From IMG/VR virus record IMGVR_UViG_3300027777_000022: 64,000 bases of DNA, one strand, 5' to 3'. The translations under genes were made by a program, and so were the position numbers. Below are positions 14,778-31,309 of the stretch, piece by piece. The stretch is from a virus (lineage: Duplodnaviria; Heunggongvirae; Uroviricota; Caudoviricetes). Under the pieces are notes generated by a model. The model saw only the letters and a program-made list of their open reading frames with translations. It searched no databases and was not told the origin of the DNA. The first letter of the stretch is position 1. Each line of letters begins with the position of its first letter.

Positions 14778-14816
14778 AGTTTTTTTGTTTTGAATTGTTA
14801 AAATCTATATATCCAC

Positions 14817-15015: not shown

Positions 15016-15016
15016 C

Positions 15017-15090: not shown

Positions 15091-15094
15091 GAGT

Positions 15095-15169: not shown

Positions 15170-15173
15170 AAAA

Positions 15174-15249: not shown

Positions 15250-15250
15250 A

Positions 15251-15580: not shown

Positions 15581-15883
15581 ATAAAACCATATAAAAACAC
15601 TTTAGATATTAGTTCAATGCTGGCACAAAGAACCGTTCGCCCCTGCCAGGGGACCGAAGTAGTTACCGCATTTATGCGCGGCACCCTCCCCGTCAAAAAT
15701 GTTTATATATGGCCCCAGTCTCTCCTAGGAAGTCACGACTGACGCTGCCGTTTACGCTGAGTAATGACCTCAGACCGGAATCTTGTCATATAGAAACACA
15801 CTACAGTCCATTCGGTAGGAAAGTTACAACTCAACAGGCTACCACCGCTGTCAAATTTGTAATGTGTTTATATATGGCGAACT

Positions 15884-15962
15884 CATTGTAGGCAGGACTC
15901 GAACCTGCATTCGCCTCTTGAGCGAGGCTTTCCTACCATTAGAAGACTACGAGTTCATCGGG
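15884..15962 (-). ncRNA. tRNA-like element (T-arm GCAGG-TTCGAGT-CCTGC; 6-nt anticodon-like loop GCUCAA; no CCA)
   Basis: T-arm and D-like GG present, but anticodon loop is non-canonical and the acceptor pairs poorly; possible pseudogene or unusual tRNA. Confidence 0.25.
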
Positions 15963-16082
15963 TCATGACTCCCGATTATGGATCAGGGTAATTACTCCTG
16001 TTTTTACCATATAGAAACACACTAAAACACAACCTTAGTTTCCCAGTTACGGTATTGTCAGTTGGTATAATGTGTTTGCATA

Positions 16083-16157
16083 TGGTCGGGGCACAGGGAC
16101 TCGAACCCTGATAGACCGGGTAAAAGCCGGTTATTCTAGCCATTGAATTATACCCCG
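16083..16157 (-). tRNA. tRNA-Lys(TTT)
   Basis: Acceptor CGGGGTA/TGCCCCG, anticodon arm ACCGG-CTTTTAC-CCGGT, T-loop TTCGAGT, CCA encoded. Confidence 0.65.
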
Positions 16158-16161
16158 TATA

Positions 16162-16236
16162 TGGTCCACTCTCTGAGACTCGAACTCAGTTCTCTCTGCT
16201 TAAGAGGCAGGACTTCACCTTCAAAGTTTAGAGTGG
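16162..16236 (-). tRNA. tRNA-Lys(CTT)
   Basis: Acceptor CCACTCT/AGAGTGG, anticodon loop CTCTTAA, T-arm CTGAG-TTCGAGT-CTCAG, CCA encoded. Confidence 0.5.
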
Positions 16237-16346
16237 GTTGTGCATATCAAATTGTCTTTAATGTGCCAACCCTAGACCATATACGGGATCTACGATTGAC
16301 ACTAGCGTTTAGCACGTTTCATGTCATGTTTCCTTGTTAAAAATGT

Positions 16347-16375
16347 ATTATACAACAATTGAGGTTTGTTGTCAA
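16347..16375 (-). promoter_or_regulatory. sigma70 consensus promoter TTGACA-N17-TATAAT at head of tRNA array
   Basis: Minus strand: -35 TTGACA (plus 16370-16375), 17-nt spacer, -10 TATAAT (plus 16347-16352), reading toward tRNAs 16236 down to 14234. Confidence 0.55.
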
Positions 16376-16376
16376 C

Positions 16377-16682
16377 CTACCAGAGATCCTGTATACCAGT
16401 GGTGACCAAAGTTATATTATAAGTTGGTGCAGTAACAGTTACAAAATCAATAAATTCCTGAGCAGCAGCATGATTGATCCACGCGGCAAATTCTATGGAT
16501 TGTGACCGACCTGGTAATCTAACCCAACATGGAGTTAACGTAGTTTTACCTTGGTTAAACATTATTTGCATCAAATTTTCTTTTTCTATAAAAAAATTTG
16601 TTTCATATTGATCAGTTGTGTTTTGATATGTTATCTCACTCAAACAAGTATTTTTTGGCATAATTGCAACTCCTATATTCAT
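16377..16682 (-). CDS. hypothetical protein (101 aa)
   Basis: ORF between tRNA-Arg(ACG) and the tRNA-array promoter. Confidence 0.35.
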   Translation of the reverse strand: MNIGVAIMPKNTCLSEITYQNTTDQYETNFFIEKENLMQIMFNQGKTTLTPCWVRLPGRSQSIEFAAWINHAAAQEFIDFVTVTAPTYNITLVTTGIQDLW

Positions 16683-16766
16683 TATTTATCAAATTTAGAT
16701 AAAATTTGATAGCCTTGAGAGATAATGGTTCTCCAACTGTTATACCTTTTGATCAACGGCCATGCA

Positions 16767-16843
16767 TGGTACCACCTGAGAGATTCGAACTCCCAACCCC
16801 CGGATTCGTAATCCAGTGCTCTATCCAATTGAGCCAAGGCGGT
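16767..16843 (-). tRNA. tRNA-Arg(ACG)
   Basis: Acceptor ACCGCCT/AGGTGGT, anticodon arm CTGGA-TTACGAA-TCCGG, T-loop TTCGAAT, CCA encoded. Confidence 0.6.
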
Positions 16844-16937
16844 GAAAAACAGTCCATATTGTATGCAATTCTTGGATTGTTGTCAACCAGTTTTTTTTGT
16901 ATTTTTACAACAAATTTTTTGGATTGCAACTTTCTTT

Positions 16938-17672
16938 TTATGCCCAGTTATTATCTAACGGCAGTGTTCTCAGCGTAATTTCAAAATTGCCTACTTTAAG
17001 TTCTGTTCCATTGGCATTTTGTAAATGATGTGATAATAAACTTTCAGGGTGAAAAACCAGCCCCAAGTCGTTATATTCTTTTAAATAATTAACTATATTA
17101 GAATATATCGTCATACTGTCAGAGTTACCAATAGCAAACTGATCATTACAAGGTGGTGTCCCATACCATTGATTTCCTGGCATAATAATTGTATTTGATG
17201 ATGGAATATTATTGCGAACATCAACTTCGTGAAGTAACCCCACATCTGATCTTGTCCTAATAACTATATCATATTTAAAATTATTTTCATTTTCATAACT
17301 AGTCCTTAGTTCGTTAGTTTTGAATATGTTGTAAAACATTTTGAAATATTGTTCAGGCGGTGAATGTACTCCTGATTGATCAGATGGATGATTACATTGG
17401 GGCCAAACTTGAGTATTCGCATCTGATATTTCAAATTTTTTAAGAAAATTATTAGGTGGAAGATTTTTTTCGATTATAGACTTGGCCCAACACGGATCAT
17501 AATCAACCCAAGTATCGTGCATAACAATGCTGACCCATTTTTGAGGTTCGTAATTTTTATTAGTCAGATAAACAAACCAATCAGCTTGATCGTACCCTTT
17601 TAAATTGTTTAAAAAAAGTTGCAGATCTTCTGTAAATCTTGGTTGTCCAGAAAGCAATATAGCAATTCTCAT
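16938..17672 (-). CDS. hypothetical protein (244 aa)
   Basis: Long ORF; no motif recognised. Confidence 0.5.
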   Translation of the reverse strand: MRIAILLSGQPRFTEDLQLFLNNLKGYDQADWFVYLTNKNYEPQKWVSIVMHDTWVDYDPCWAKSIIEKNLPPNNFLKKFEISDANTQVWPQCNHPSDQSGVHSPPEQYFKMFYNIFKTNELRTSYENENNFKYDIVIRTRSDVGLLHEVDVRNNIPSSNTIIMPGNQWYGTPPCNDQFAIGNSDSMTIYSNIVNYLKEYNDLGLVFHPESLLSHHLQNANGTELKVGNFEITLRTLPLDNNWA

Positions 17673-18115
17673 AATTTATCCTTTATTAACTGTACAAAAT
17701 CACTACATATGCCGTAACAATTTGTGTCAATATTTTTTAGCTCTGGATCATGCCACTCGGGTAGTACCGCAATGCTGCGGCATGTTAGCTCTTTACCTGG
17801 ATAAGTCCATATAAAATTGTTGCTGGTAAGAACAAAATCATCTTCTTGATGCCAGAAATAATACAGACTAGTGTTAGTCAACCACCTCAGTGCTGCTAAA
17901 TTTTTGGCATGAATCCATAGACCAAATTTACTCAAGAACTCTTTGTTAACTGGATAGTCCGGTCTATCATGACCTAGATAAAATTCTGAGTTGACTACCC
18001 AAAGATCAATTTCACAATCGAACTCTTGAGATAACGTCAATTCAATTTGTTCAGGGCGATTTTCTAAATTAACATCTGGACCGTTGGTTAATCCTCTATG
18101 TGCTATTAGTTTCAT
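17669..18115 (-). CDS. glycerophosphodiester phosphodiesterase (GDPD)-like, short
   Basis: N-terminal MKLIAHRG...E-x-D (HRG motif of GDPD family). Confidence 0.4.
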   Translation of the reverse strand: MKLIAHRGLTNGPDVNLENRPEQIELTLSQEFDCEIDLWVVNSEFYLGHDRPDYPVNKEFLSKFGLWIHAKNLAALRWLTNTSLYYFWHQEDDFVLTSNNFIWTYPGKELTCRSIAVLPEWHDPELKNIDTNCYGICSDFVQLIKDKL

Positions 18116-18116
18116 T

Positions 18117-19493
18117 TTATTCGCTTTTATGATTTTTTAAAAATTGTTCTAAATCTTCTGGGGTACCAATTCCCCACATTTTGCCAACCCTGTTTACTTT
18201 AATTTTTTTACCGTCTGCAATTGCTTGATTGAATACAGGACATACATAAAACTCGTTATTCACACGAATATTTTTTGCAATCATTTCTTCAGCATATTTG
18301 ACATAGTCACTGCCATGTTTCCAATAGTAAATTCCTACTGTTGCTTCCGTACTAATAATTTTCTTTTCGGCCACTTCACTGACAAACCCATCGTGGCCAA
18401 GTTTTGCATAACTCCATTTGGGATGCCTGGCTTCAAATGTAACAATACCGCCATCAATCTCATCAGCAGTAAACGCATACATACACTCGTTGCTATTCCA
18501 TTCAACATATTGATCACTGTTGGCTATCACCAATGGTGCGTCTGAATTTATATAATCTTTGGCTAACAGCGTAGAGCATGCCGCGCCGTCTGTAATTCCA
18601 TTAACCTGTACAATATCACACCCTGGAGATATGAGATTAAGCAGGTATTTTAAATTGTATTTTTCATAGTGTTCCTGCTGCACAATAAAAATATAGTGTG
18701 CGTCTATGTTCAAGTTTTCCACAACTACTTGAATCATGGGCTTGCTGTTTACTTCAATCAAGGGTTTAGGAAAGGTATACCCGTGTTGTGCAAATCTACT
18801 ACCTGCTCCAGCCATTGGTACTAGTACATTAAGTTTACTATCTTTCCACGGTATAGAGTTTGATGTCATTTGCGAATCCATTTCGTGCAATTTTTTATTA
18901 ATTTTATTCCATGTAACATCGTGGGAATTTTTCACCGCTAACAGGTGTGCCCCACTGTCTATGGCACCTTGTCTGCCGATGTGACTGTCTTCAATTATAA
19001 GGGTGTTCCTAGGAATTGCATCAAGCATGGTCATACACTGCCAATACATCTCAGGGTAAGGTTTTGGGTGCTGCACGTCTTGGTTACTGACGTAGTAATC
19101 AACATATTCCATTACTCCAATTTTTAATAGGCTAAGTTTAACTGTTTCTCTAATGCTGTTACTGGCAACTGCTATAACATACCCTGATGCTTTGAGTTTA
19201 GAAAATATATCTACTAGTTTGTTATCAATAGGAAACTTTTTAATTAGTTCGAAAGTGGCCAGCTGTTTGCGCCGCCATACTACATCATGATAGTCTAAAG
19301 GTAGTCCCTTAGATTCTGATAACATCTTTAGTTTCTTAGTGGTATTGAGACCGTCATATACTGAAAGATGCTCGTCTCTAGTAATTACATATTTGGAGTC
19401 AACGCTGCCCAGTGCATCATTAAGGCTTTGGTAGTGTAATTCTCTACTTTCAATTAACACTCCATCTAGGTCAAATATAATTAATTTACTCAT
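18117..19493 (-). CDS. bifunctional HAD-family phosphatase / sugar-phosphate nucleotidyltransferase
   Basis: N-terminus IIFDLDGVLIES (HAD motif I). C-terminal half LVPMAGAGSRF...KPLIEV is the nucleotidyltransferase G-x-G-x-R signature. Confidence 0.6.
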   Translation of the reverse strand: MSKLIIFDLDGVLIESRELHYQSLNDALGSVDSKYVITRDEHLSVYDGLNTTKKLKMLSESKGLPLDYHDVVWRRKQLATFELIKKFPIDNKLVDIFSKLKASGYVIAVASNSIRETVKLSLLKIGVMEYVDYYVSNQDVQHPKPYPEMYWQCMTMLDAIPRNTLIIEDSHIGRQGAIDSGAHLLAVKNSHDVTWNKINKKLHEMDSQMTSNSIPWKDSKLNVLVPMAGAGSRFAQHGYTFPKPLIEVNSKPMIQVVVENLNIDAHYIFIVQQEHYEKYNLKYLLNLISPGCDIVQVNGITDGAACSTLLAKDYINSDAPLVIANSDQYVEWNSNECMYAFTADEIDGGIVTFEARHPKWSYAKLGHDGFVSEVAEKKIISTEATVGIYYWKHGSDYVKYAEEMIAKNIRVNNEFYVCPVFNQAIADGKKIKVNRVGKMWGIGTPEDLEQFLKNHKSE

Positions 19494-19546
19494 ATAGTTA
19501 TTTAAGCTGTTGGTGAGTTGTTATGAACTCATGTATTAACTAAGAA

Positions 19547-19625
19547 TGGATGCGGAGGCAGGATTCGCACCTGCGATCTCCAGCTTATGAGACTGGCGGG
19601 GACGGCTAGACTCCCCTACTCCGCA
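19547..19625 (-). tRNA. tRNA-Met(CAT), second copy with unusually long D-loop
   Basis: Acceptor TGCGGAG/CTCCGCA, anticodon loop CTCATAA, T-arm GCAGG-TGCGAAT-CCTGC, CCA encoded. Confidence 0.5.
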
Positions 19626-19639
19626 ATAACTTGTAAAAC

Positions 19640-20272
19640 CTAACGGTTTAGATTTTTTAAAATATGCTCGGCAAATGATTCATGTGCTGATCTGTAAAAA
19701 TGTATTTTTTCCGTATGAGAAAAATTGTGTTGTTGGCACCAAGCCATAAAATCTATATCCACAGGCCACTTTACCGTGGTAGGCCAAATAAAATCAGTTA
19801 CTGGCCAAAAACTATCTATGTTGATAACTTGGATACCTTGTGCCTGGGCTAATGCATTCAGAGCCATGATATTTTTTATTTTATTTAACATACCTAACTC
19901 AACGCTAGTTGAATACAACACCCAATATTTAAAATAATCAAGGTCAATGTTATCAGGCGGAACTCCTGGTACTAATCTTATCCAATGTCCATCAAAAATT
20001 TCACTTCTATTTACTCCTGACCAACAAGCAATCACAAGATCATTGTTGGTGAGTTTAGTCTCTGTAAATAATCTAAACACTGCATCATTGCTGCCGCCGG
20101 ATATTGCTCGATTGATTGGATCATATCCTAATGCTCGTGCAATTTGTGCAGGATAGCAATAGGTAAGTTCATAGTCGGACGCTTGTTCAAAACTATCAAA
20201 AACCAGTCCGGGTTCTTTATTTATTTCTGCACCTACTGCATGGCTGCATCCTAGTATTAATGCTTTTTTCAT
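19640..20272 (-). CDS. SGNH-like hydrolase paralog (catalytic Ser replaced; GCSHAVGAE)
   Basis: N-terminus ALILGCSHAVGAEIN parallels the VNGDSHTAGAEAV of the SGNH protein at 42533..43249. Confidence 0.4.
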   Translation of the reverse strand: MKKALILGCSHAVGAEINKEPGLVFDSFEQASDYELTYCYPAQIARALGYDPINRAISGGSNDAVFRLFTETKLTNNDLVIACWSGVNRSEIFDGHWIRLVPGVPPDNIDLDYFKYWVLYSTSVELGMLNKIKNIMALNALAQAQGIQVINIDSFWPVTDFIWPTTVKWPVDIDFMAWCQQHNFSHTEKIHFYRSAHESFAEHILKNLNR

Positions 20273-20277
20273 ATTAA

Positions 20278-20350
20278 TGGTGCCCCATGAGAGAATCGAA
20301 CTCCCGTCAACGGATTACAAAACCGTGATAATGCCATTATACTAATAGGG
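20278..20350 (-). tRNA. tRNA-Thr(TGT)
   Basis: Acceptor GCCCTAT/ATGGGGC, anticodon loop TTTGTAA, T-loop TTCGATT, CCA encoded. Confidence 0.5.
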
Positions 20351-20357
20351 CTTGAAT

Positions 20358-20433
20358 TTGGCTCCGACCGCTGGAATCGAACCAGCCTTCAAGGATTAAC
20401 AGTCCTCTGCCCACACCGTGTTTGCTTCGTCGG
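20358..20433 (-). tRNA. tRNA-Asn(GTT)
   Basis: Anticodon arm GAGGA-CTGTTAA-TCCTT, discriminator G, CCA encoded. Confidence 0.55.
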
Positions 20434-20457
20434 AATAATACTTTATATATCTCTTGT

Positions 20458-20543
20458 TTGGTGGACAGTAATGGATTTGAACCACTGCGCTTTTTACAGA
20501 ACGGATTTACAGTCCGTCGCCTTCAACCACTCGGCCAACTGTC
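20458..20543 (-). tRNA. tRNA-Tyr(GTA), class II
   Basis: Acceptor GGACAGT/ACTGTCC, anticodon arm ACGGA-CTGTAAA-TCCGT, long variable arm, T-loop TTCAAAT, CCA encoded. Confidence 0.6.
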
Positions 20544-20775
20544 CTGATTGAATTTGCAAGTAGTTGCTCCCTGTATTATAGCAACCATTCACCCTATGCT
20601 AAAGCCGGCCGGGATTTTGGTACGTCACTTGGGATACTGATCCAGATGATACGCCAATTGTATGCCAGTCCCACTCAAGCGACCAGCCGGGCATTGAACC
20701 CGCTACCTTCTACTGTACAGTACCTTCGAAGAATACTGCACAGCGTGACTTTCTCTTGCTGACACTTACAAAACT

Positions 20776-20850
20776 TGGTGCCACGAGCTGGACTCGAACC
20801 AGCCACACACAGATTTTCAGTCTGCTGCTCTACCTGATGAGCTACCGCGA
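20776..20850 (-). tRNA. tRNA-Phe(GAA)
   Basis: D-arm GCTCATCAGGTAGAGC, anticodon loop CTGAAAA, T-loop TTCGAGT, CCA encoded. Confidence 0.6.
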
Positions 20851-20857
20851 CATTGTA

Positions 20858-20947
20858 TTGGCGGAACGACTGAGACTCGAACTCAGAAACCGGATTACGC
20901 CGATCGACAGATTAGCAATCTGCTCCAATACCATTATGGGACCGTTC
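20858..20947 (-). tRNA. tRNA-Ser(GCT), class II
   Basis: Acceptor GGAACGG/TCGTTCC, anticodon loop TTGCTAA, long variable arm, CCA encoded. Confidence 0.55.
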
Positions 20948-20956
20948 CTTAAAACT

Positions 20957-21030
20957 ATGGAGCGGGGTGCGAGAATCGAACTCGCGCTATCAGCTTGGAA
21001 GGCTGAAATCCTACCATTAAATGAACCCCG
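20957..21030 (-). tRNA. tRNA-Gly(TCC)
   Basis: Acceptor GCGGGGT/ACCCCGC, anticodon arm TCAGC-CTTCCAA-GCTGA, T-loop TTCGATT, CCA encoded. Confidence 0.65.
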
Positions 21031-21260
21031 CATAAAAAATTGGAGACAGCCTACACAAAAGGTTTGCCTAATGTGCCGTCCACTTTATCCGCTTATCCTA
21101 GCCACTTGCCGATCACTAGATCAGGGCAGCAAAGATAAGTTTCAGTCTCCGAAAACTGTTGTCGGTATAAGGAGTCTATCCCCGACTGTGCAACACTAAT
21201 ACTCTATCCTGCGTAAGGTGTCTCCATAAACGGAGCCTTAGCGCGGTTGCATCTGAAAAC

Positions 21261-21335
21261 TGGTGGAGGCCGGGGGTATCGAACCCCTCTAGACAAGATG
21301 CTTGCAAAGCAACTCCGCACCCCTGTGCTGCCCCC
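21261..21335 (-). tRNA. tRNA-Ala(TGC) with G3-U70
   Basis: Acceptor GGGGGCA/GGCCTCC gives G3-U70; anticodon loop TTTGCAA; T-loop TTCGATA; CCA encoded. D-arm is short. Confidence 0.45.
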
Positions 21336-21343
21336 ATATTGTT

Positions 21344-21419
21344 TGGCTCCATCTGTTGGATTCGAACCAACCTCTTCCGGTTAACAGCCGGGGGTACTCG
21401 CCAAGAATACTAAGATGGA
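21344..21419 (-). tRNA. tRNA-Asn(GTT), second divergent copy
   Basis: Acceptor TCCATCT/AGATGGA, anticodon loop CTGTTAA, discriminator G, CCA encoded. Confidence 0.45.
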
Positions 21420-21426
21420 ATAAAAT

Positions 21427-21513
21427 TGGTGGAGCAGAGAGGGTTCGAACCTCTACAGAACTTGCTGACCTCCGGGTTACAGCCGGGTACCCTTCCTCTC
21501 AGGTGTCTACTCC
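21427..21513 (-). tRNA. tRNA-Tyr(GTA)-like, second class II copy
   Basis: Acceptor GGAGTAG/CTGCTCC, anticodon loop CTGTAAC, long variable arm, T-arm AGAGG-TTCGAAC-CCTCT, CCA encoded. Confidence 0.45.
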
Positions 21514-21575
21514 ATTAACTAATTTGAAGTCCTGCTTGACATTGTAGTGCAGGTAACTGTGTCGTCTTCAAAACT

Positions 21576-21649
21576 TGGTCCTCTGTAGAAGAATTGAACT
21601 TCTGTCTATCGGTTATCAGCCGATTGCTCTGCCATTGAGCTAACGGAGG
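21576..21649 (-). tRNA. tRNA-Ile(GAT)
   Basis: D-arm GCTCAATGGCAGAGC, anticodon arm ATCGG-CTGATAA-CCGAT, T-loop TTCAATT, CCA encoded. Confidence 0.6.
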
Positions 21650-21657
21650 AAAAAACT

Positions 21658-21733
21658 TGGCGGTCTTAGGGGGTAACGATCCCCACTCTTACGGCGTGAC
21701 AAGCCGTCGTGCGTCCATGAACACTTTAAGACC
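21658..21733 (-). tRNA. tRNA-Asp(GTC)
   Basis: Acceptor GGTCTTA/TAAGACC, anticodon arm ACGGC-TTGTCAC-GCCGT, atypical T-loop ATCGTTA, CCA encoded. Confidence 0.5.
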
Positions 21734-21739
21734 TAAATT

Positions 21740-21814
21740 TGGTACTGCGTACGGGTATCGAGCCCGTCTAGTCACCTTGAAAGGGTGATGACCTCACCTG
21801 AAGTCGAACGCAGT
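21740..21814 (-). tRNA. tRNA-Glu(TTC)
   Basis: Acceptor ACTGCGT/ACGCAGT, anticodon arm TCACC-CTTTCAA-GGTGA, T-loop CTCGATA, CCA encoded. Confidence 0.5.
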
Positions 21815-21834
21815 GTATCTTTGTTATATTTCAA

Positions 21835-21900
21835 CACACTACCAGTCCCCAGGATTCGAACCTGTTTCTTTAGTAGTTTACCTTGACGTTTGCAGTCGGG
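21835..21900 (-). ncRNA. tRNA-like fragment (T-arm CAGG-TTCGAAT-CCTG only)
   Basis: T-arm motif without a recognisable acceptor or anticodon arm; possible tRNA remnant. Confidence 0.2.
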
Positions 21901-22071
21901 CAAGTAATGTATTGAAATATAACTTCTCGCCACGCTGTCTTTCACAAGATTGCGGACTGTTATCACCTTGCAGCAAACTCGTGCTTGGTGTTGTCTTGCG
22001 AGAAAAATTATACTTTATAAGTTGTTAATGAACCTGTTGCAACCAACTCGATCGTTTGCTGCTAAGTGTTT

Positions 22072-22100
22072 ATTATAACACCGTTTGCTATACTGGTCAA
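22072..22100 (-). promoter_or_regulatory. sigma70 consensus promoter TTGACC-N17-TATAAT (tandem copy 1)
   Basis: Minus strand: -35 TTGACC (plus 22095-22100), 17-nt spacer, -10 TATAAT (plus 22072-22077). Confidence 0.55.
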
Positions 22101-22166
22101 CCGGTTTTGCAAAGCCCTACAACTTGGAAGGACTCTACAAATCTCGCTGCTTTCTAACTAGTCTCT

Positions 22167-22195
22167 AGTATAACACCATGTGCGATACTGGTCAA
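22167..22195 (-). promoter_or_regulatory. sigma70-like promoter TTGACC-N17-TATACT (tandem copy 2)
   Basis: Near-duplicate of the promoter 95 bp downstream: tataacacc-N8-atactggtcaac. Confidence 0.5.
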
Positions 22196-22238
22196 CTTGT
22201 TTTGTAATGCCCTTCTTGTCTGAAGGGTCTTTGTTACA

Positions 22239-22312
22239 TGGCAGACGTGCCAGGGCTCGAACCTAGAACGACAGAGTCAAAGTCTGTTGTGTTACCATTA
22301 CACCACACGCCT
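22239..22312 (-). tRNA. tRNA-Gln(TTG)
   Basis: Acceptor AGGCGTG/CACGTCT, D-arm GTGT-AATGGTA-ACAC, anticodon arm ACAGA-CTTTGAC-TCTGT, CCA encoded. Confidence 0.55.
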
Positions 22313-22318
22313 ATAAAT

Positions 22319-22397
22319 TTGGTACCCTTGCTCAGATTCGAACTGAGAGAACTCTTCCTTTTGAGAGAAGCGACTTTGCCAATTTGTCCACAAGGGC
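22319..22397 (-). tRNA. tRNA with anticodon CAA (Leu-decoding) but short variable arm
   Basis: Acceptor GCCCTTG/CAAGGGT, anticodon arm CTTCT-CTCAAAA-GGAAG, T-arm CTCAG-TTCGAAT-CTGAG, CCA encoded; 11-nt D-loop. Confidence 0.45.
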
Positions 22398-22398: not shown

Positions 22399-23157
22399 TT
22401 ATTTTTTTCTTTTGTGAAATACCACTGGCTGGAAATCAAATTCACCAGGGCAAAATTCACATTGATCAATGGGTTGATTTCTTGTGTCAACAAAGTCTGC
22501 CAACTGTTGCTCGGTGCAGTCCACACTCAATGGTTGATACTGAGCCAACAACTGTTCTTGCCTTGCATCCATGATTACTGATTGCTGTGTACGAAACTCT
22601 GGCAACACAGCCATCACAGGACACTTGTACAGTTTTCCTTTGAATACAGTGTGACTATGCCTCATGGTGCAGGCTTTGAATGCAGTTATTGGATTGCTCT
22701 GATGAACAACAAATGCATCACCTTGCGGGATGATTGCAGCCGGAGTAAATTCTGTATTGTCAATAAGGTTGCCCCATTGTCGTTCTAATGCAGGTCGCAT
22801 CTCAGGTCGATGTACACTTATACCCCATCCCACACGGTATTTGCTGTAAGAGTCGAGATCTTTTGCTATTTTTGCATTAGTGCCATTGCTTTGTATCATG
22901 ATAGTGGTTTCTGGCCACAATCTGCGAAGATTCACTACCCAAGTTTCTAATCCGGGATGCAAGCTGGGTTCACCACCAATGATCACTATCATTGACGCAT
23001 TGATTCGTTGACTCCAGGCTTCAACAGCAGGTGCAGAATCCTCCCATGAGTAGTGACCACGGAAATCGTGATCATTGAACCTATTGCAGTTGGTGCAGGC
23101 CAGGTTGCATTGATTGGTGATGTAGAACTCTATCACTGAGTCTAAGAATACGGACAT
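22399..23157 (-). CDS. radical SAM protein (small QueE/NrdG-activase-like family)
   Basis: ITNQCNLACTNC (CxxxCxxC) and IIGGEP motif. Confidence 0.6.
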   Translation of the reverse strand: MSVFLDSVIEFYITNQCNLACTNCNRFNDHDFRGHYSWEDSAPAVEAWSQRINASMIVIIGGEPSLHPGLETWVVNLRRLWPETTIMIQSNGTNAKIAKDLDSYSKYRVGWGISVHRPEMRPALERQWGNLIDNTEFTPAAIIPQGDAFVVHQSNPITAFKACTMRHSHTVFKGKLYKCPVMAVLPEFRTQQSVIMDARQEQLLAQYQPLSVDCTEQQLADFVDTRNQPIDQCEFCPGEFDFQPVVFHKRKK

Positions 23158-23673: not shown

Positions 23674-23889
23674 TTATTTTGATTCAGCTGCTTCTAGTGC
23701 AGCAGCAGCTTCTTCCAAGAGGTCGGCGATACGGTCAGGCTTGCCTTCCTCTACACTTTTACGTGAAGTGATCTGCCGACGGATCTCTGCTCGCTTGCGC
23801 AAACGAAAGATCAAACTTTGTTCACTCACAGGCAAGTGACTTTCGTCCTTGGCCATAAGTTCTTCAAACCTGTCAAATTCTTCGTTCAT
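23674..23889 (-). CDS. hypothetical protein (71 aa), acidic
   Basis: Short ORF whose start overlaps the RNA ligase stop by 4 nt. Confidence 0.35.
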   Translation of the reverse strand: MNEEFDRFEELMAKDESHLPVSEQSLIFRLRKRAEIRRQITSRKSVEEGKPDRIADLLEEAAAALEAAESK

Positions 23890-24791
23890 ACAGTCTCCAA
23901 ATATTCACGTACCCATGCCAGGCGCTCTTGTTCGTTCAACACAGTGTACTTCACAATGTTGGAACGGATATGTTCCAGCAATGGATAGTATTCCTCGTCA
24001 ATTTGTTCCCGGAACTCTTGAGTCATCAACTTATCAGTACGAGGGTTACGTGCTACCCACTTTGCAGTTAGATAGTATGGTGATTTGATCTTGGCACTCA
24101 CACCATCTTCGGTATAGAACACAAAACCTTCGTGCTTGACACGCTTGGATTCGGCTACCAACTCACCAACAGTTATGCGATAAGATTCTACTGCATGACA
24201 CTTTACAGTATCCTGAGCAAATATCTTCCACACTGTATCACAGTCAAATCCATGCACCCGAGATTCCCAAGCGTTTTCACGCCAGCCAAGAAAGTACATT
24301 CCTGCCTTTTCTACCACAATGTGAGGGTCGCTTGGGTGTACGCATTCAAACATGAAAGTATGACCTTCATTGGAAGCTATTGCCAACACCCAATCTTCCC
24401 AGCACATGTGCTTCAACATCATTTCCTTGGCGTAGTCCACATAGTCGCTGGCAGTTGAGCCAGTTGTACTCACTAGGATATCGTTCTTGTACCAAGTCAT
24501 TGCTACCATAAAGCCATTGGCTTTGCGATAAGCAGTTACCTTTGTATCATCACTCAACACAGGAGATTTGGCTTCCACACCATAGTTGTAGATCTTTGTG
24601 AATGGCCGCGACACCACATTGAAGTCCTCATCAACGATAGTACCGCGACATTCTTCAAGAAAGTCATTCCATAGGTTGTCAAAGAACACACGCTTGGAAT
24701 ACTTTAGCACATAGATACCATCACCAGCAGGCCGCATATTAACCAACCGTGGGTTAGCTAGCACAAACTTTTTTAATTCATCTTGGTTCAT
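23886..24791 (-). CDS. rnlA: RNA ligase 1 (T4 RnlA-like)
   Basis: LEECRGTIVDEDFNVVSRPFTKIYNY parallels T4 Rnl1 [30 protein letters not shown]; nucleotidyl-lysine motif KANG. Start moved to Met 24791 because promoter -10 (24821-24826) lies inside the longer ORF. Confidence 0.65.
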   Translation of the reverse strand: MNQDELKKFVLANPRLVNMRPAGDGIYVLKYSKRVFFDNLWNDFLEECRGTIVDEDFNVVSRPFTKIYNYGVEAKSPVLSDDTKVTAYRKANGFMVAMTWYKNDILVSTTGSTASDYVDYAKEMMLKHMCWEDWVLAIASNEGHTFMFECVHPSDPHIVVEKAGMYFLGWRENAWESRVHGFDCDTVWKIFAQDTVKCHAVESYRITVGELVAESKRVKHEGFVFYTEDGVSAKIKSPYYLTAKWVARNPRTDKLMTQEFREQIDEEYYPLLEHIRSNIVKYTVLNEQERLAWVREYLETV

Positions 24792-24820
24792 AATTCTACT
24801 TGTTTTTGCTATAAGTCCAA

Positions 24821-24849
24821 ATTGTAACATCAAATGGATTACGTGTCAA
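24821..24849 (-). promoter_or_regulatory. sigma70-like promoter TTGACA-N17-TACAAT
   Basis: Minus strand: -35 TTGACA (plus 24844-24849), 17-nt spacer, -10 TACAAT (plus 24821-24826). Confidence 0.5.
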
Positions 24850-24852: not shown

Positions 24853-26160
24853 CTAGATGTACATTCGATAAAGTTCGGGCAGTAGTTCATCTCCGATCAG
24901 TGCTGCAAATATGATAGGTGCAGCACTTTGTCCTTTGATGGCAAATCCCACAATTGTACCAATGATCAGTGTCAACCAAGTCAAAACAAAGTGCCCGCTA
25001 GCGTATGATTCCCATAGCATGGCCACGGTGATTATTACTAATAATATTGCTGCAATTTCTTTTTGATAGACAATGAAAAATCTCAAATGTGTATATAATT
25101 TTCCAGAAATATAAAAATTAATAAGACTCACTGCCACGCACAATGTACACAGCAAGATTGCATTATTTTTTATCAACTCAAAAGCAGTTTGTATCACAAA
25201 GCCTTTATTTTCAACCAACGATAATATTATTGCTTCTGATGGCAGAATAGGCAATCCCAATAGTAATAAAGGAATCAATGATGTTATAGCCCCTGCATTA
25301 TTTGCTGTTTCGGCTGATATAATATTATTATAATAAGTTTGCGGGTCGGATACCTGATTCAAAGTATTTCTAAATTTTTCAACTGCCTCTGCAAATGAGG
25401 AACTCAGCGCATAGCTAATGCCCGGTATTAACCCCGATAAACTTCCAACTGCTGACCCTATCATAATTGTTCCAGTAGAGTTTGTCATAACAGGAGTATC
25501 ATTGGTTTTCTGAAAACTATTCACTATCGTAGACTTGGATCTAACAATACCGGGTATAACCAAAAGTCCCATTGCAATGGGAATGATTGGTACCCCTCCA
25601 AGCTGCGCAATATAACTTGGAACAAATTGTTGCATAGACTCAATGTACCAAATAGAGCCGGTACTGATATACAATCCAACCAATGATAACGCTGTTGCTA
25701 TAATTTTATTGCCGCTCATGCCAATAAGTAGTAAGATAGCTATTACTAATACAGCTATTTTGATTTTGCCAGAAAAGAAATAAATCAGGGTCTCATAGTA
25801 TGGAATGGCACACATGAATATTCCCAGTGCAATGATTGCTCCTACAAAACTACCCAACGCAGTGCCTGCTAATATTTTTTCTTGAAGACCATATTTGGCA
25901 ATTTGAAAACCATTTTCTACTGCCGGGACAGAGGTGAATTCACCTACTACCCCAAACAAAATTGCACTCACACTACCATAGTATTGCATAGTCATCACAA
26001 CTACACAATAAAACCACATGAGCAATTGCCAGTTTGGAATTACGTGTGCAGCGGGCATCATTAAAATCAAAACTCCCGACACATTTAGTGACGGGAGCAT
26101 CCCTGCTAATATGCCCAAAAATAAAGCAATACCAGTGACGGTGACCCACCAGGTTATCAT
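24853..26160 (-). CDS. polytopic membrane protein, TctA-like (tripartite tricarboxylate transporter permease family)
   Basis: At least 10 hydrophobic spans; Gly-rich GLIPGISYALSS-type repeats; immediately upstream of a TctC-like binding protein. Confidence 0.4.
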   Translation of the reverse strand: MITWWVTVTGIALFLGILAGMLPSLNVSGVLILMMPAAHVIPNWQLLMWFYCVVVMTMQYYGSVSAILFGVVGEFTSVPAVENGFQIAKYGLQEKILAGTALGSFVGAIIALGIFMCAIPYYETLIYFFSGKIKIAVLVIAILLLIGMSGNKIIATALSLVGLYISTGSIWYIESMQQFVPSYIAQLGGVPIIPIAMGLLVIPGIVRSKSTIVNSFQKTNDTPVMTNSTGTIMIGSAVGSLSGLIPGISYALSSSFAEAVEKFRNTLNQVSDPQTYYNNIISAETANNAGAITSLIPLLLLGLPILPSEAIILSLVENKGFVIQTAFELIKNNAILLCTLCVAVSLINFYISGKLYTHLRFFIVYQKEIAAILLVIITVAMLWESYASGHFVLTWLTLIIGTIVGFAIKGQSAAPIIFAALIGDELLPELYRMYI

Positions 26161-26163
26161 GTT

Positions 26164-27078
26164 CTACTTGGCTAGTCCAATTGCTATTTCTGTTGCAATA
26201 ACACGATCTAATGTTGTTTCAGATGGAAACTTTGTAGGAGTTTGCAGTATTGAAGTTACATATTTTTTAATAGGTTCAGTTTTGAATACATCAACCAATA
26301 CTTTCCGTGCAGATGCGCTTGTTCCTGGAGGTACTGCAACATATTGTTCCAGAACCAAATCTATCTCGGTGTTGTTTTGATCTTTGACTCGTACTACCGG
26401 AATGTTAACCAATTCGTTCTTGGCTGACTGCATAATTCCAATAGAATTGTCTTCTGCTATCAGTTGATAGCAGGCTGTGCTAATACCCAAATCAACATCG
26501 GATGTTTTTAGTGCAATTCTGATAGGTCCTGCGCCACTGTAGGGCACAAAAGTTGCTTTGAGTTTTGGATTTTGTTCTTGTAGCATTCGCAAATACTTTT
26601 TACCAATTTCGCCAGCAGCAGCAATTCTAACTGGAGTGCCAGAAGTTAGCAATTCGGTTGCAGTTGTTACCTTGGCTGTTTTTGAGGCCGAGGTACACAT
26701 CACCTGAGGGGTAGACGACACCGAAGTGATCAAAGTCAATTCAACCGGCCAAGAATCTTGTTTAGGACACACAGCTAATGCCTTGGATTTGTCTGACCAA
26801 ATTGTGTCTCCACTAGTCATCATTACAACAGGTACCGTTGAATCCTTGATGCGACTTACTATTTGTAATGCTGCTGCACAGGAATTGGTAAATTGCCTAG
26901 ATACTGTATGTCCGTTTTTTTCTAGTTCAGCCGCAGCGGCATCGGTGATCATACCGGTTGAACCTCCAGGGCTAGCAAATTGTACAAACGTGATATTCTC
27001 TGCGCTAATTGATGTAGAGCCAATGAGCAGTGCCAATGGCAAAATCAGATTGCGTAGTGTGGTGTAATAAGTTTTCAT
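26164..27078 (-). CDS. TctC/Bug-family periplasmic substrate-binding protein
   Basis: Signal peptide, then ITFVQFASPGGSTGMITDAAA ... ATFVPYSGAGPI ... VAVPPGTSASARKVL, matching the TctC pattern (GGxxD, VPYxG, AP-GTP). Confidence 0.5.
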   Translation of the reverse strand: MKTYYTTLRNLILPLALLIGSTSISAENITFVQFASPGGSTGMITDAAAAELEKNGHTVSRQFTNSCAAALQIVSRIKDSTVPVVMMTSGDTIWSDKSKALAVCPKQDSWPVELTLITSVSSTPQVMCTSASKTAKVTTATELLTSGTPVRIAAAGEIGKKYLRMLQEQNPKLKATFVPYSGAGPIRIALKTSDVDLGISTACYQLIAEDNSIGIMQSAKNELVNIPVVRVKDQNNTEIDLVLEQYVAVPPGTSASARKVLVDVFKTEPIKKYVTSILQTPTKFPSETTLDRVIATEIAIGLAK

Positions 27079-27146
27079 AAGTTTCCTATTGTTAATAATT
27101 CATTGATACATAATATGTATTGGTCACCCTGTGTGGTTCACACAGG

Positions 27147-28235
27147 TCAACGTACTTGTCGAAATTTACCAAATCGTCCGTGATACTTATCGATGGATCC
27201 ATCGGGTGGCAAAAGACTGTGTCTCTTCATGTAGCTTATTATAGTTTGATCTGTTTGCATTGCAAGTAATCCGGCAATATAAGACTTAAATCTATCATCT
27301 TTTGTGTAAAAATTATTGTCACTTTTGGTTAATATGCCTACTGTGTTGACAGGATTTTTTGAAAGCCAAGTTCGCTGCAAGTATGTCAATCCAGAAATTA
27401 ATTCAGAATCTCTTCCACATGCAGTTGCCATAAAATTAGCATTGGTTATATTTTGTTCTGCAAATCTCAGTGAGTTCCATCCTTCATAAATTGGATAATT
27501 TGAGTTAATCATACTGTTCACTACCATGTGAGTTTGTTTAACATGCAACTCGATCAAGTCGGGACTTATAAAAAACCATTCAAATGCATTATTATCTAAA
27601 TGAGCATACCCTGAGTATATTTTATCCAAATGTGTACTGAACCATTTGCCACCTGAATAGTACACATGAGGTTTTTCTACTCCTAGTATTGCTGCCCATG
27701 ACTGCCCCCGCCACCTCTCAGTCCTTTCAATAATTTTAGAATGATTTGCAAGGGGACTAGGGCTATATGTGATTGCTGGGTTGATGGTCCAATCATCATT
27801 CAATCCCTTATAAGTGTCAAAATTTTCATTTCTATGATATACTGTGATGATAGTCGTGGGATCCCAATGATTGTCTTTTAACCACTTGACATTCTGTGCA
27901 GGATGTCCATGTTCATCTTGGTCATGGTAGTATATGATAATTTCATCAATATGAAGGTTCAATCTTTTGAAAGTGTTGTAAATTGTAATAGAGTCAGTGC
28001 CACCGCTGAAAAATAATACTAATCTATCATACTTGTGCCTTAGTTGGGCAGCTCTGATGTTGCACAATTCAGCAAATGACTGTGAGGGTTCTATTAACCA
28101 ATTGACAGCATCAAATTCTTCTTCCAGCAACTCAAAGTTGACTATTGTGTGAGGGGTGTGAACTGCGGCATACGAAATAGCTTGAAATGCGTTTATAAAT
28201 TTGTTATGGTCAGTGGACCAAATTGGATTTTTCAT
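27147..28235 (-). CDS. PP-loop superfamily ATP pyrophosphatase (QueC/TilS/AsnB-like); specific function unresolved
   Basis: LVLFFSGGTDSITI (SGGxDS PP-loop); no QueC-type C-terminal Cys cluster. Confidence 0.5.
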   Translation of the reverse strand: MKNPIWSTDHNKFINAFQAISYAAVHTPHTIVNFELLEEEFDAVNWLIEPSQSFAELCNIRAAQLRHKYDRLVLFFSGGTDSITIYNTFKRLNLHIDEIIIYYHDQDEHGHPAQNVKWLKDNHWDPTTIITVYHRNENFDTYKGLNDDWTINPAITYSPSPLANHSKIIERTERWRGQSWAAILGVEKPHVYYSGGKWFSTHLDKIYSGYAHLDNNAFEWFFISPDLIELHVKQTHMVVNSMINSNYPIYEGWNSLRFAEQNITNANFMATACGRDSELISGLTYLQRTWLSKNPVNTVGILTKSDNNFYTKDDRFKSYIAGLLAMQTDQTIISYMKRHSLLPPDGSIDKYHGRFGKFRQVR

Positions 28236-28466: not shown

Positions 28467-28970
28467 TCATTCTCCTACTATTCTGCGGGCACGAGCCATC
28501 AATGTGGCGTCACCGCGGGTCAATACCGCCAACAACATGCGTTTCTCCGCCAAGTAGATCTTGGCAAAAGCAGGGTCATGTGTCATGATGCTGCCACTGT
28601 TGGCGATCAAGTCAGCCAATTTCACAGTTTGTGCAGCAGCAGGTGCCATTGCAATATGCTCACGGTCTCGGGCCTTGCGAACAGCTCTGTTGCCATCTTC
28701 TGGCTGGCTGACATCAGTTAACCAGCTGACTAAAGACGCAACTTCGTGTCCAAATTCACGAGTGATGTCCACAATGGTAACACCAGTGTCTTCCACTGTG
28801 TCATGCAACCAGGCAGCAGCCAACATCACGTCGGTGTGTGGCACACTGGCAACAATGTTGGCAACTTCGGTAGGATGCACAATGTACGGCTCAAAGGTGT
28901 ACTTGCGCACTTGCTTGACCGCAGCATGGGCAGCAGTGGCAAATACTCGGGCTCGTTCTACTATTGTCAT
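28467..28970 (-). CDS. HD-domain phosphohydrolase, RelA/SpoT (ppGpp hydrolase)-like
   Basis: HPTEVANIV...AAWLHDTVEDTGVT...FGHEVASLV matches the HD motif of SpoT/Mesh1 hydrolase domains. Confidence 0.55.
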   Translation of the reverse strand: MTIVERARVFATAAHAAVKQVRKYTFEPYIVHPTEVANIVASVPHTDVMLAAAWLHDTVEDTGVTIVDITREFGHEVASLVSWLTDVSQPEDGNRAVRKARDREHIAMAPAAAQTVKLADLIANSGSIMTHDPAFAKIYLAEKRMLLAVLTRGDATLMARARRIVGE

Positions 28971-29031: not shown

Positions 29032-29577
29032 TTAGTGATGCCCTTTGATTGCACCCTTCAAGCCAAGTCGAATTGCTTCGTCCATGGCAATGGCAATTGC
29101 ACCAGTAGAATCCATGCCCACATCCACAGCACGATACTTTTCTAAGCCACTTGTACCACCGTGCAAGTGACCGTGCAAGTGAACAGCGCCGTGATGCATC
29201 TGATCCCATTCTGCAATAGGATAGTGAAACATCACAACTTTGGTTTCGTTGAACTGCACATCCAGATACTTGTGGACTTCTCGAAAACATGCACGGAACA
29301 CATTATCCTGCAGGGTTTTGCGGTCGTGATTGCCTTCGATCAGGATCTTGGTGCCGTTGCAGCGATTCATGTATTCTGCTGCTTTGGCAGCTGGCAAGAA
29401 TGCCACGTCGCCCAGAATGTACACAGTGTCTTCAGGAGCAATCATGGCATTCCATTCGATCACCATTTGTTCGTTCATGTATGCAACGTCGTTGCGAAAC
29501 CGCGCCCGTGTTACAGGGCAAAAACTCATGATGTTCTTGTGCCCAAAATGTAAATCAGATGTTACCCAAGTTTTCAT
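29032..29577 (-). CDS. calcineurin-like metallophosphoesterase
   Basis: TSDLHFGH, ILGDVAF, GNHD and LHGHLHGG motifs; start moved to MKTWV (29577). Confidence 0.7.
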   Translation of the reverse strand: MKTWVTSDLHFGHKNIMSFCPVTRARFRNDVAYMNEQMVIEWNAMIAPEDTVYILGDVAFLPAAKAAEYMNRCNGTKILIEGNHDRKTLQDNVFRACFREVHKYLDVQFNETKVVMFHYPIAEWDQMHHGAVHLHGHLHGGTSGLEKYRAVDVGMDSTGAIAIAMDEAIRLGLKGAIKGHH

Positions 29578-29578
29578 A

Positions 29579-29830
29579 TTATTTCTTCTTTGTTCTTCCA
29601 ATTCGTGATGCCTTGTTCCAGGTGTATGCCACACCATCCGGAGTCCGGCCATCCATCACACTATCCACACCAGGTTTGCCCACATGGTCAGGATCTTCAG
29701 ATACCATGGTAACAAAGATCATGCCCAGCTTGCGAAAGGCCTCGGTATACTTCAATGCTTCGTTCAATGTAACGGCATTGTGTGCATGTGACCAATCAGT
29801 TACAGGATCTGTGTAATATATTTTAAACAT
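29579..29830 (-). CDS. hypothetical protein (83 aa)
   Basis: ORF directly downstream of promoter 29836-29864; predicted transcription start at or near the ATG, so possibly leaderless. Confidence 0.4.
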   Translation of the reverse strand: MFKIYYTDPVTDWSHAHNAVTLNEALKYTEAFRKLGMIFVTMVSEDPDHVGKPGVDSVMDGRTPDGVAYTWNKASRIGRTKKK

Positions 29831-31137: not shown

Positions 31138-31309
31138 AATGTATCCTTGTGATAAATTGGTGGGATGTTTTGTTGGACCCTCCGGACTCGAACCGGAACC
31201 TTACAAATTATGAGTTTGCGGCACTAACCATTATGCTAGAGTCCAACAAAACACCCTTTCCTATATTGTGTGTGTGGATGCTGTCAACTTTCATAATATT
31301 ACTTATCAG

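Follow-up and report, generated by a model that had tools for sequence, protein, structure and literature searches.

The IMG/VR record IMGVR_UViG_3300027777_000022 was analysed over a stretch of 64,000 nucleotides (hereafter the window) that belongs to a novel jumbo phage with a T4-type polymerase and 34 tRNAs, and the phage context of the module described here is clear. Three genes follow each other on the minus strand and encode, in the order of transcription, a 362-aa PP-loop ATP-pyrophosphatase-like enzyme (pp; 27147..28235, minus strand), a 304-aa secreted solute-binding protein (SBP) of the TctC/Bug superfamily, of which it is a diverged member (W_304; 26164..27078, minus strand), and a 435-aa permease of the TctA family belonging to a short, virus-specific clade (24853..26160, minus strand). 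The first-pass annotation of this DNA had correctly delimited the last two open reading frames, and had placed the permease gene upstream of the binding-protein gene, an order that is reversed by the direction of transcription; pp, the conserved partner immediately upstream, was absent from it. The TAG stop codon of the SBP gene is separated by 3 nt (AAC) from the ATG of the permease gene, and an AGGA motif lies 6 nt ahead of the ATG of the SBP gene. A promoter and terminator scan of the locus gave nothing decisive: no terminator was detected within the trio, and a strong sigma-70-like site was found only downstream of TctA, before an RNA ligase gene. The same arrangement, identical or nearly so and with phage flanks, was recovered in four independent assemblies, and diverged versions of the SBP and TctA arrangement are carried by more than 100 viral contigs, so it is not a chance product. 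Radical SAM and f197 genes are also present in the window, 13-20 kb from the module.

The identity of the permease proposed from the letters alone was confirmed by its match to the Pfam TctA model (PF01970; E 4.3e-38, 131.5 bits for a cut-off of 28.9), spanning residues 11-409 of the protein and positions 6-412 of the 423 of the model; the protein scores as no other transporter family and the same domain is present in all its relatives. Alignment to six canonical TctA revealed that the core motifs are kept and that about 15 N-terminal residues, part of the central loop and the last C-terminal transmembrane helix are absent, departing from the bacterial architecture of about 500 aa and 12 transmembrane helices. 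This shortening extends to the whole viral clade, with lengths of 419-469 aa against 491-584 aa for cellular TctA. In a neighbor-joining tree, viral (54) and cellular (26) TctA are reciprocally monophyletic, and the viral clade goes deep, its mean divergence being about 70%; the closest cellular TctA is only about 25-30% identical to the phage protein. Comparison with the related locus L012 gave a dN/dS of 0.118 for TctA and 0.12 for the SBP, indicating purifying selection on both genes.

The relationship of the secreted protein to TctC is more distant. Its N-terminus was recognized as a signal peptide in the first-pass annotation, and the translation indeed predicts a Sec-type signal peptide over residues 1-26 (27001..27078, minus strand; MKTYYTTLRNLILPLALLIGSTSISA, followed by ENITF), with cleavage between SISA and EN and no lipobox cysteine; N-terminal hydrophobic signal sequences are likewise found in 43 of 43 distinct pp-linked TctC-like proteins of related phages. 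Searched as a single sequence, W_304 has no significant match in Pfam, NCBIfam, PHROGs or PDB; it falls below the curated threshold of PF03401, a model to which only 5 of 41 relatives give a match, with E-values of 0.04 or worse. Profile comparison recovers the kinship: a profile of 64 viral SBPs aligned by hhalign to one of 28 canonical TctC gives a probability of 98.9% over the full length (E 1e-17, 281 columns), smaller profiles having given 50% and E 1.6e-4. Similarly, among 2304 ORFs of the viral loci, an HMM of canonical TctC retrieves almost only viral SBPs, ranked at the top, and the best PDB profile matches of the family are the TctC proteins 6hke and 7ndr. W_304 itself is connected to other members of the family by phmmer (E 1e-24 to 1e-8) and by blastp to L004_280 (3e-11), which matches the canonical TctC HMM at 1e-7, and a protein identical to W_304 bears the JGI label TctC. 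An AF2 model of W_304, built on a 41-sequence alignment, reached a pLDDT of 45, too poor for a fold search. The assignment to TctC/Bug is real, albeit remote, and the protein does not score as a generic periplasmic or phage structural one. Among the three TctC hallmarks initially proposed for it, two are readily located (FVPYSGAGP at residues 177-185 and VAVPPGT at about 247-253), and the literal GGxxD is absent. In TctC proteins, the domain-1 signature P-F-x-A-G-G-x-x-D positions the proximal carboxylate of the ligand in a pincer (PMC5812351). The corresponding residues 34-42 of W_304 read F-A-S-P-G-G-S-T-G, where the two glycines are kept, the P is lost and a Gly occupies the Asp position. 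The close relatives L004 and L013 retain PGG(G/S)TD, and the Asp position is D or E in 16 of the 64 TctA-linked viral SBPs. This reduction of the signature to its two glycines, with an acidic residue in only this minority of sequences, suggests that something other than a classical carboxylate may be bound.

The third component of such systems, TctB, was not found, in agreement with the first-pass annotation, which saw no obvious TctB-like subunit while describing the system as tripartite; the module is bipartite (SBP and TctA). When the window was searched together with 88 viral loci, the top match to a TctB HMM had an E-value of 0.12 and lay inside TctA itself, bearing in mind that TctB is poorly conserved and that the search of this phage genome is limited to the visible 64 kb. 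The same canonical TctB HMM recovered TctB in 16 of 18 cellular loci used as a positive control. No conserved small transmembrane ORF was seen beside the module. TRAP systems cannot do without their small subunit (PMC5812351).

The short TctA clade was identified in 131 IMG/VR viral contigs, representing about 55 lineages after dereplication. As in TctABC systems, the SBP gene adjoins that of the membrane component, with a spacer of 3 nt in the window, and accompanies TctA in 49 of the 55 lineages; pp is present in 30 of them. The gene order varies among lineages (pp-SBP-TctA, TctA-SBP-pp or pp-TctA-SBP). The distance matrices of TctA and SBP are strongly correlated (Mantel r 0.955, with 0 of 2000 permutations as high), a value to be read with the caution that any two co-inherited genes yield a high correlation. 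Neither megablast of an 8-kb segment nor tblastn of TctA, SBP and pp gave a match among 50,697 GenBank phages, and tblastn of the marine clade member P0028 retrieved only canonical host-like TctA fragments from dubious records in this collection, so no cultured phage can be used as a reference. Among 185,579 species genomes, the clade was found on one short MAG contig only; as the scan relied on one narrow peptide pattern, its absence from cellular genomes is a statement of lower sensitivity. The neighbours of the module extend its composition in some relatives. In a group of 340-kb contigs, pp-TctA-SBP has a Gram-negative porin gene (PF13609, 4e-26) immediately upstream, and TRAP-type DctP binding proteins (PF03480, 3.7e-32) adjoin TctC-pp pairs in others. 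Related neighbourhoods are also rich in radical SAM and hydroxylase-like paralogues, a composition that is compatible with a biosynthetic island as well.

The pp protein is similar to the synthetase domain found in asparagine and beta-lactam synthetases. It has a PP-loop motif on a Rossmann-like fold, with an SGGxDS sequence invariant in the family, and lacks the N-terminal class II glutamine amidotransferase: about 70 residues precede the PP-loop, and no GATase match was found in Pfam. In structure it comes nearer to AsnB and beta-lactam synthetase; QueC is more distant, and pp could not be placed in its family. By analogy with these synthetases, it is most likely an enzyme of the carboxylate-adenylating type. 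The pp family comprises 1122 clusters at 50% identity, mainly from uncultured phages, whose members are named "uncharacterized protein". In many phages pp adjoins secreted TctC-like genes, often with no TctA nearby; its association with an SBP in the absence of TctA being commoner than its association with TctA, the link between pp and the permease is indirect. In lineages devoid of pp, the same slot is occupied by a probable ATP-grasp family (family A9, 390 aa), assigned from motifs and two weak Pfam matches only. This family was also considered as a remote pp homologue and rejected (hhalign 0.5%).

Taken together, we consider it somewhat probable that the module serves for the uptake of a small organic acid, followed by its ATP-dependent capture, in the infected cell. 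In a diderm host, the SBP would be exported by Sec and would bind a small organic anion in the periplasm, then hand it over to the phage TctA-like secondary permease, presumably powered by an ion gradient and operating without TctB. In the cytoplasm, pp would adenylate the imported compound, most probably on a carboxylate group, as the asparagine and beta-lactam synthetases do, and its conversion into an amide or a ligation product would trap it and channel it towards a product beneficial to the phage. In phages encoding only the SBP and pp, we infer that the SBP would plug into the TctAB of the host, as is thought for orphan Bug proteins and in the manner of cyanophage PstS, while phages like the present one would supply the permease too, and some of them an outer-membrane porin. 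By way of background, the SBP-dependent systems of the TTT and TRAP types take up their substrates with high affinity, and TctC proteins often occur as orphans (PMC5812351). The recurrence of the trio in environmental phages and in no cultured one suggests that phages equip the cells they infect with a private uptake route for a small organic acid. A broader proposal, which we hold more tentatively, concerns environmental jumbo and T4-like phages: their SBP and short TctA would be a virus-specific, TctB-independent derivative of the TTT transporter with two components and, joined by a PP-loop or ATP-grasp ligase and in certain genomes by a phage porin, could form a complete virus-encoded route for a specific organic acid, from the outside of the cell to a product under phage direction.

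Other readings of the same genes can be envisaged. The core of the module could consist of the secreted TctC-like protein and the PP-loop enzyme in a role other than import, TctA being an accessory exporter or facilitator. This role could be periplasmic sensing or signalling, as for BctC with the BctE sensor kinase, or participation in a biosynthetic or RiPP-like pathway whose product would be assembled by AsnB-like, ATP-grasp, radical SAM and hydroxylase enzymes. We regard this as unlikely, since import is the known function of SBP-dependent secondary transporters (PMC5812351) and the porin and DctP neighbours better suit uptake; moreover, neither a precursor-peptide gene nor a protease was seen, and the radical SAM and f197 genes of the window are remote from the module. 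The salvage of 7-deazaguanines is less probable still. It would have the SBP and TctA import 7-carboxy-7-deazaguanine, which is a carboxylate, or a related base, and pp, though no orthologue of QueC, act like it as an amidase or nitrile synthetase that supplies the modification pathway of phage DNA or tRNA. Against it stands the greater structural proximity of pp to AsnB and beta-lactam synthetase, as well as the absence of Que genes, a single QueD excepted, within 6 kb on either side of pp, TctA and SBP in some 150 related loci; besides, QueC may sit outside the visible 64 kb, and a phage making CDG itself would hardly need to import it.

Very improbable too, in our opinion, is that the short TctA acts as a conduit for nucleic acid or nucleotides, to which the SBP would be unrelated. 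The comparison with the archaeal 11-TM stand-alone TctA-like proteins gives this reading some substance, as the phage protein is similarly short and devoid of both TctB and the last transmembrane helix (PMC10133366; PMC5898192). The tight coupling and co-divergence of TctA with a TctC-family SBP argue against it, and no OB-fold partner was seen. Finally, the genes could have no function, as a host fragment picked up recently (a moron), or could have been brought together by a chimeric assembly. Genes for transporters are often among the cargo that comes from hosts, and the G + C content of the module genes (0.39-0.40) is slightly under the window mean. This reading is essentially refuted by the recovery of the same arrangement with phage flanks in independent assemblies, the depth and reciprocal monophyly of the viral clade, its distance from the closest cellular TctA, the signature of purifying selection and, within the lower sensitivity of the genome scan, the near confinement of the clade to viruses.

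Uptake followed by ATP-dependent capture, if it is the function of the module, would point to a metabolite needed by many aquatic phages during infection, and would imply that TctA can operate without TctB in the poorly studied TTT family, for which no crystal structure of TctA or TctB had been reported in a 2018 review. It would also define a virus-specific transporter clade and a PP-loop enzyme family mainly of uncultured phages, and offer a compact two-gene system for the heterologous study of SBP-dependent secondary transport. Should the complete route exist, phages would set the uptake specificity of their host, beyond boosting its transporters, and the SBP and pp pair would represent a new and widespread class of auxiliary metabolic module.

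Compared with the TctCBA and BctCBA systems of Salmonella and Bordetella (TC 2.A.80), the phage module shares a PF01970 permease and a Sec-exported TctC-type SBP encoded side by side as a co-transcribed pair, for which the expected mechanism is the SBP-dependent secondary uptake of organic acids. It differs from them by the lack of TctB, by a TctA 60-80 residues shorter that misses the last transmembrane helix, and by an SBP that is under the Pfam thresholds and in whose signature the P and D are missing. Its genes are virus-encoded and form a separate clade, and their partner is a PP-loop enzyme instead of a TctDE-type regulator. The archaeal stand-alone TctA-like proteins (COG1784; MMJJ_13030) are also short members of the family devoid of TctB, but they have no TctC partner and are required for natural transformation by DNA (PMC10133366), whereas the phage TctA is linked to an SBP. 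Many related phages resemble the beta- and alpha-proteobacteria with orphan Bug/TctC proteins, thought to share a few TctAB cores (PMC5812351), in that they have a gene for a secreted TctC-like protein but none for TctA in its vicinity; unlike orphan Bug genes, that of the phages nearly always adjoins pp, and the phage of the window, which brings a permease of its own, does not count among the orphan cases. As for pp, it is distinguished from the synthetase domains of AsnB, beta-lactam and carbapenam synthetases by the lack of the N-terminal glutaminase, a low identity (9-11%), a distinct N-terminal beta-hairpin and a distinct C-terminal helical region.

Among viruses, the first-pass annotation knew of no described TctA/TctC pair in a phage. 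This novelty holds in part: tctA has appeared once in a list of putative viral AMGs, from SUP05 viral contigs, as a "protein domain hit only", with a 2OG-Fe(II) oxygenase nearby and the comment that its "precise metabolic role ... remains unknown" (Roux et al. 2014, PMC4164917), and that report gives no SBP, partner enzyme, clade analysis or proposed role. The SUP05 gene probably belongs to the viral TctA clade described here; at L009, a related locus, a 2OG-Fe(II) oxygenase is likewise encoded in the vicinity. The PstS of cyanophages is an auxiliary periplasmic phosphate-binding protein that boosts uptake during infection; it is part of an ABC system and depends on the PstCAB of the host. To our knowledge, phage-encoded nutrient acquisition has essentially been limited to such binding proteins borrowing host ABC permeases. 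In contrast with PstS, the present module is of the secondary-transporter type, and its binding protein, its membrane permease and a dedicated enzyme of the cytoplasm all come from the phage, to which relatives add a porin.

The pairing of a TctA-like permease with a TctC/Bug-family binding protein, proposed for this phage in the first-pass annotation, is real and was essentially read correctly, and it extends to a conserved three-gene viral module. Three genes co-oriented on the minus strand encode a 362-aa PP-loop ATP-pyrophosphatase-like enzyme (pp, 27147-28235), the 304-aa binding protein (SBP, 26164-27078) and the 435-aa TctA permease (24853-26160). The pp gene ends 68 nt upstream of the SBP gene, whose ATG follows an AGGA located 6 nt 5' of it, and only 3 nt separate the SBP stop codon from the TctA start codon; a scan of the window revealed no terminator-like site between any of the three genes. 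Directly 3' of the pp stop (27128-27146, minus strand), a perfect 8-bp hairpin, CCTGTGTG-AAC-CACACAGG, without T-run, may represent an element for RNA processing or stability in the pp-SBP intergenic region. The flanks, also on the minus strand, comprise an HD_4 (RelA/SpoT-type HD) protein (28467-28970) and a metallophosphoesterase (29032-29652) on one side, and on the other a T4 Rnl1-like RNA ligase (23886-24833), preceded by a strong sigma-70-like promoter (24849-24821), and a small radical SAM protein whose type is unclear (22399-23157).

The window is phage DNA, as the annotation had assumed: it carries tRNAs and a T4 gp43-type DNA polymerase, and the same trio with the same flanks is present in four independent metagenome assemblies. 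The polymerase has its top match (49% identity) in two jumbo phages, Sinorhizobium phage Phosso and Agrobacterium phage Atu_ph07. Two RNA ligases are present, and no nucleotide match was found among 50,697 GenBank phages. The 34 tRNA genes (minus strand, 5521-22397 and 31172-31245), most of them in one 17-kb array with intervening ORFs, cover almost all amino acids; three have a CAT anticodon and the tRNA-Ile(TAT) at 14234-14325 is unusually long (92 nt).

The permease aligns with the Pfam TctA model (PF01970) over its whole length (E 4.3e-38), which confirms its initial assignment. Its relatives form a first group of 419-449 aa (E 1e-45 to 1e-27) and, past a gap, a second one of canonical 490-505-aa TctA (E 1e-18 or weaker). 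Aligned to six annotated TctA from tctCBA operons, the short form retains the core motifs GxLPGxG, QYxGS, PGExxS, AETANNAG and IPLLxLGxP, and is missing some 15 residues at the N-terminus, a portion of the central loop and the final transmembrane helix. Viral and cellular TctA are reciprocally monophyletic in a neighbour-joining tree of 54 dereplicated viral and 26 cellular sequences, the latter a small set excluding archaeal stand-alone proteins. The reported lack of an obvious TctB also held: a canonical TctB HMM retrieved this subunit from 16 of 18 cellular control loci, where it lies between tctC and tctA, but from neither the window nor any of 88 viral loci, and no conserved small membrane ORF was found beside the module.

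The identity of the binding protein required a more indirect demonstration. Taken alone, the SBP has no match in Pfam, NCBIfam, PHROGs or PDB, and only three close relatives. Its homology to TctC is nevertheless established, at the sequence level, transitively and through profiles. Blastp links it (3e-11) to the SBP adjoining a marine viral TctA (L004_280), phmmer ties it to 16 other viral SBPs (1e-23 to 7e-5), and an HMM built on seven canonical TctC matches almost exclusively these SBPs among 2304 viral-locus ORFs (L004_280, 1e-7). In PDB, the best-ranking matches of a family profile are the TctC proteins 6hke and 7ndr, aligned over the VPYxGxG...VD segment, and an hhalign comparison of profiles from 64 viral SBPs and 28 canonical TctC reaches 98.9% probability (E 1e-17, 281/289 columns). 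The family signature P-F-x-A-G-G-x-x-D (PMC5812351) is cut down to G-G in the window SBP, and its D position is D/E in only 16 of the 64 viral SBPs, among which VPYxG[SG]G...D-x-D is nearly invariant. The TctC/Bug assignment thus stands as profile homology and not as a Pfam match of its own; combined with the reduced signature, this leads us to call the SBP a diverged member of the TctC superfamily rather than of PF03401 as curated, and its ligand may be something other than a classical carboxylate. Its Sec signal peptide has no lipobox, from which we expect a soluble protein in the periplasm of a diderm host. Its AF2 model is of too low a quality for use (pLDDT 45).

Scanning IMG/VR with the short-TctA alignment revealed 131 viral contigs, the longest of 340 kb, and searches of GenBank phages found this clade in no cultured phage. 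A narrow-pattern scan of 185,579 species, one genome each, yielded a single copy, on an 8.9-kb MAG contig (FZLS01000099.1, “Rhodobacteraceae bacterium Water_Bin34”) that carries a viral-type SBP alongside; this contig is probably a piece of phage DNA that ended up in a bacterial bin. Dereplication at 90% TctA identity gave 55 lineages; the SBP family occurs in 49 of them and pp in 30, in varying gene order. TctA and SBP distance matrices are strongly correlated (r 0.955, 48 lineages; 0/2000 permutations as high), therefore the two genes are inherited together as a unit, physical contact not being implied. In a comparison with L012, a relative of 87% identity, TctA has a dN/dS of 0.118 and the SBP one of 0.124.

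The pp family comprises 1122 clusters at 50% identity, with S76, G78, D80 and S81 of its SGGxDS PP-loop invariant. In Pfam it has no more than weak matches to PP-loop and QueC; structural matches include carbapenam synthetase (9.1) and asparagine synthetase B (8.4), the top three being aligned over 214-216 residues, with TilS, NAD synthetase, LarE and others ranking lower. Unlike asparagine synthetase B, pp has no glutaminase domain. It was not found in GenBank phages or PHROGs, and its close matches among viral structure predictions are all “uncharacterized protein [uncultured Caudovirales phage]”. In an independent pp search of IMG/VR, a TctC-family gene lies within 6 kb in 31 of 51 dereplicated loci, directly adjoining pp in 24 of these, compared with only nine loci for TctA; the conserved core is therefore a secreted TctC-like protein plus pp, of which the window phage is a fuller version with its own permease added. 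All 43 distinct SBPs at pp loci have a signal peptide, and many keep the canonical VPYPPGGxTD. An unrelated 390-aa family fills the pp slot in 16 TctA lineages devoid of pp; its PFIIKPxIGSG and IDCNPRIGQG motifs, together with two weak ATP-grasp_3 matches, make it a probable ATP-grasp enzyme, with another carboxylate-activating chemistry.

Some loci contain several pp paralogues, two in L009:3787-10020 and five in L066:1041-13255, accompanied by a membrane protein resembling fatty-acid hydroxylases, a 2OG-Fe(II) oxygenase and a further TctC that is near-canonical (L009:4827-5690; TctC HMM 1.6e-29). Paralogues of pp also occur in two records labelled giant-virus MAGs (IMGVR_UViG_GVMAG-S-1035192-18 and GVMAG-S-1045060-49), the latter with phage-clade TctC and TctA too; both may be jumbo-phage fragments.

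The neighbourhoods of the modules display recurrent genes. Eight lineages in all encode a Gram-negative porin (PF13609, 4e-26), and in the 340-kb contig group its gene is immediately upstream of pp-TctA-SBP; the contiguous block (L025:3694-8106 in the 340-kb IMGVR_UViG_3300042473_001265; also L019, L027, L118, L119 and L144) brings together outer-membrane, cytoplasmic, inner-membrane and periplasmic components in one stretch of a jumbo-phage contig. TRAP DctP binding proteins (PF03480, 3.7e-32) adjoin TctC-pp pairs in L136:3878-4852 and 12 other loci (eight lineages), so these phages draw their binding proteins from two carboxylate-transporter families that are unrelated. Also recurrent are several radical SAM families, some of them B12-binding, and arrays of paralogues from two further families, one of 228 aa and Asp/Arg-hydroxylase-like, the other of 197 aa. 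Five to six tandem paralogues of the former (Asp/Arg beta-hydroxylase match weak, 0.006) lie beside modules at L004:14293-17334, L160:4629-10430 and L164:6948-9718. The window too has homologues of the B12-radical SAM and 197-aa families, 13-20 kb away from the module; the two B12-binding-type radical SAM proteins of the window (6612-8063 and 48664-50589, minus strand) have homologues directly beside modules in L017, L057, L146, L166 and others.

With somewhat better than even confidence, we favour uptake and capture of an organic anion. The exported SBP would bind the anion and hand it to the permease, which would work without TctB, or to the host TctAB where a phage has no permease of its own, and pp would adenylate, then convert, the imported ligand. 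This reading is favoured because SBP-dependent TTT and TRAP systems and orphan Bug proteins provide a fitting known biology (PMC5812351), the synteny is tight, shuffled yet persistent, two alternative carboxylate-activating enzymes occur, and porin and DctP are neighbours. It is weakened by the change in the carboxylate pincer, by its reliance on a putative TctB independence and by neighbourhoods with a biosynthetic flavour. The likeliest alternative, a role of the SBP-pp core in biosynthesis or in something other than transport, is itself unlikely.

Salvage of a 7-deazaguanine precursor, with pp as a QueC analogue, is raised by three minus-strand genes of the window (46196-47143, 51413-51892 and 52373-53164): a QueE-like radical SAM whose best PDB matches are 7-carboxy-7-deazaguanine synthase, a GTP cyclohydrolase I (FolE; PDB, 1.7e-25) and a PTPS/QueD-type protein with a Pfam match, placed at 51413-51892 by motif only. 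They suggest a deazaguanine DNA or tRNA modification pathway, and no canonical QueC or TGT/DpdA was seen within the 64-kb window. However, Que genes did not co-occur with the module in about 150 related loci, one QueD apart, and the pp structure appears AsnB-like, which makes this salvage improbable. A role like that of archaeal-type stand-alone TctA, as in DNA uptake (PMC10133366), is slightly less probable again, and we give hardly any credence to the module being dead host cargo.

No described TctA/TctC pair was known for a phage at first reading. Our full-text literature search likewise retrieved nothing that describes a phage TctC, its pairing with TctA, the pp family or the linkage of these genes, although tctA alone had been listed on viral contigs, as a putative AMG of unknown role with “protein domain hit only” (Roux et al. 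2014, PMC4164917); a review repeating this listing (PMC6359870) was the only other mention retrieved. Whether the phage TctA works independently of TctB is now directly testable. Compared with known systems, the phage module is a variant of the tripartite tricarboxylate transporter (TctA, TctB, TctC).
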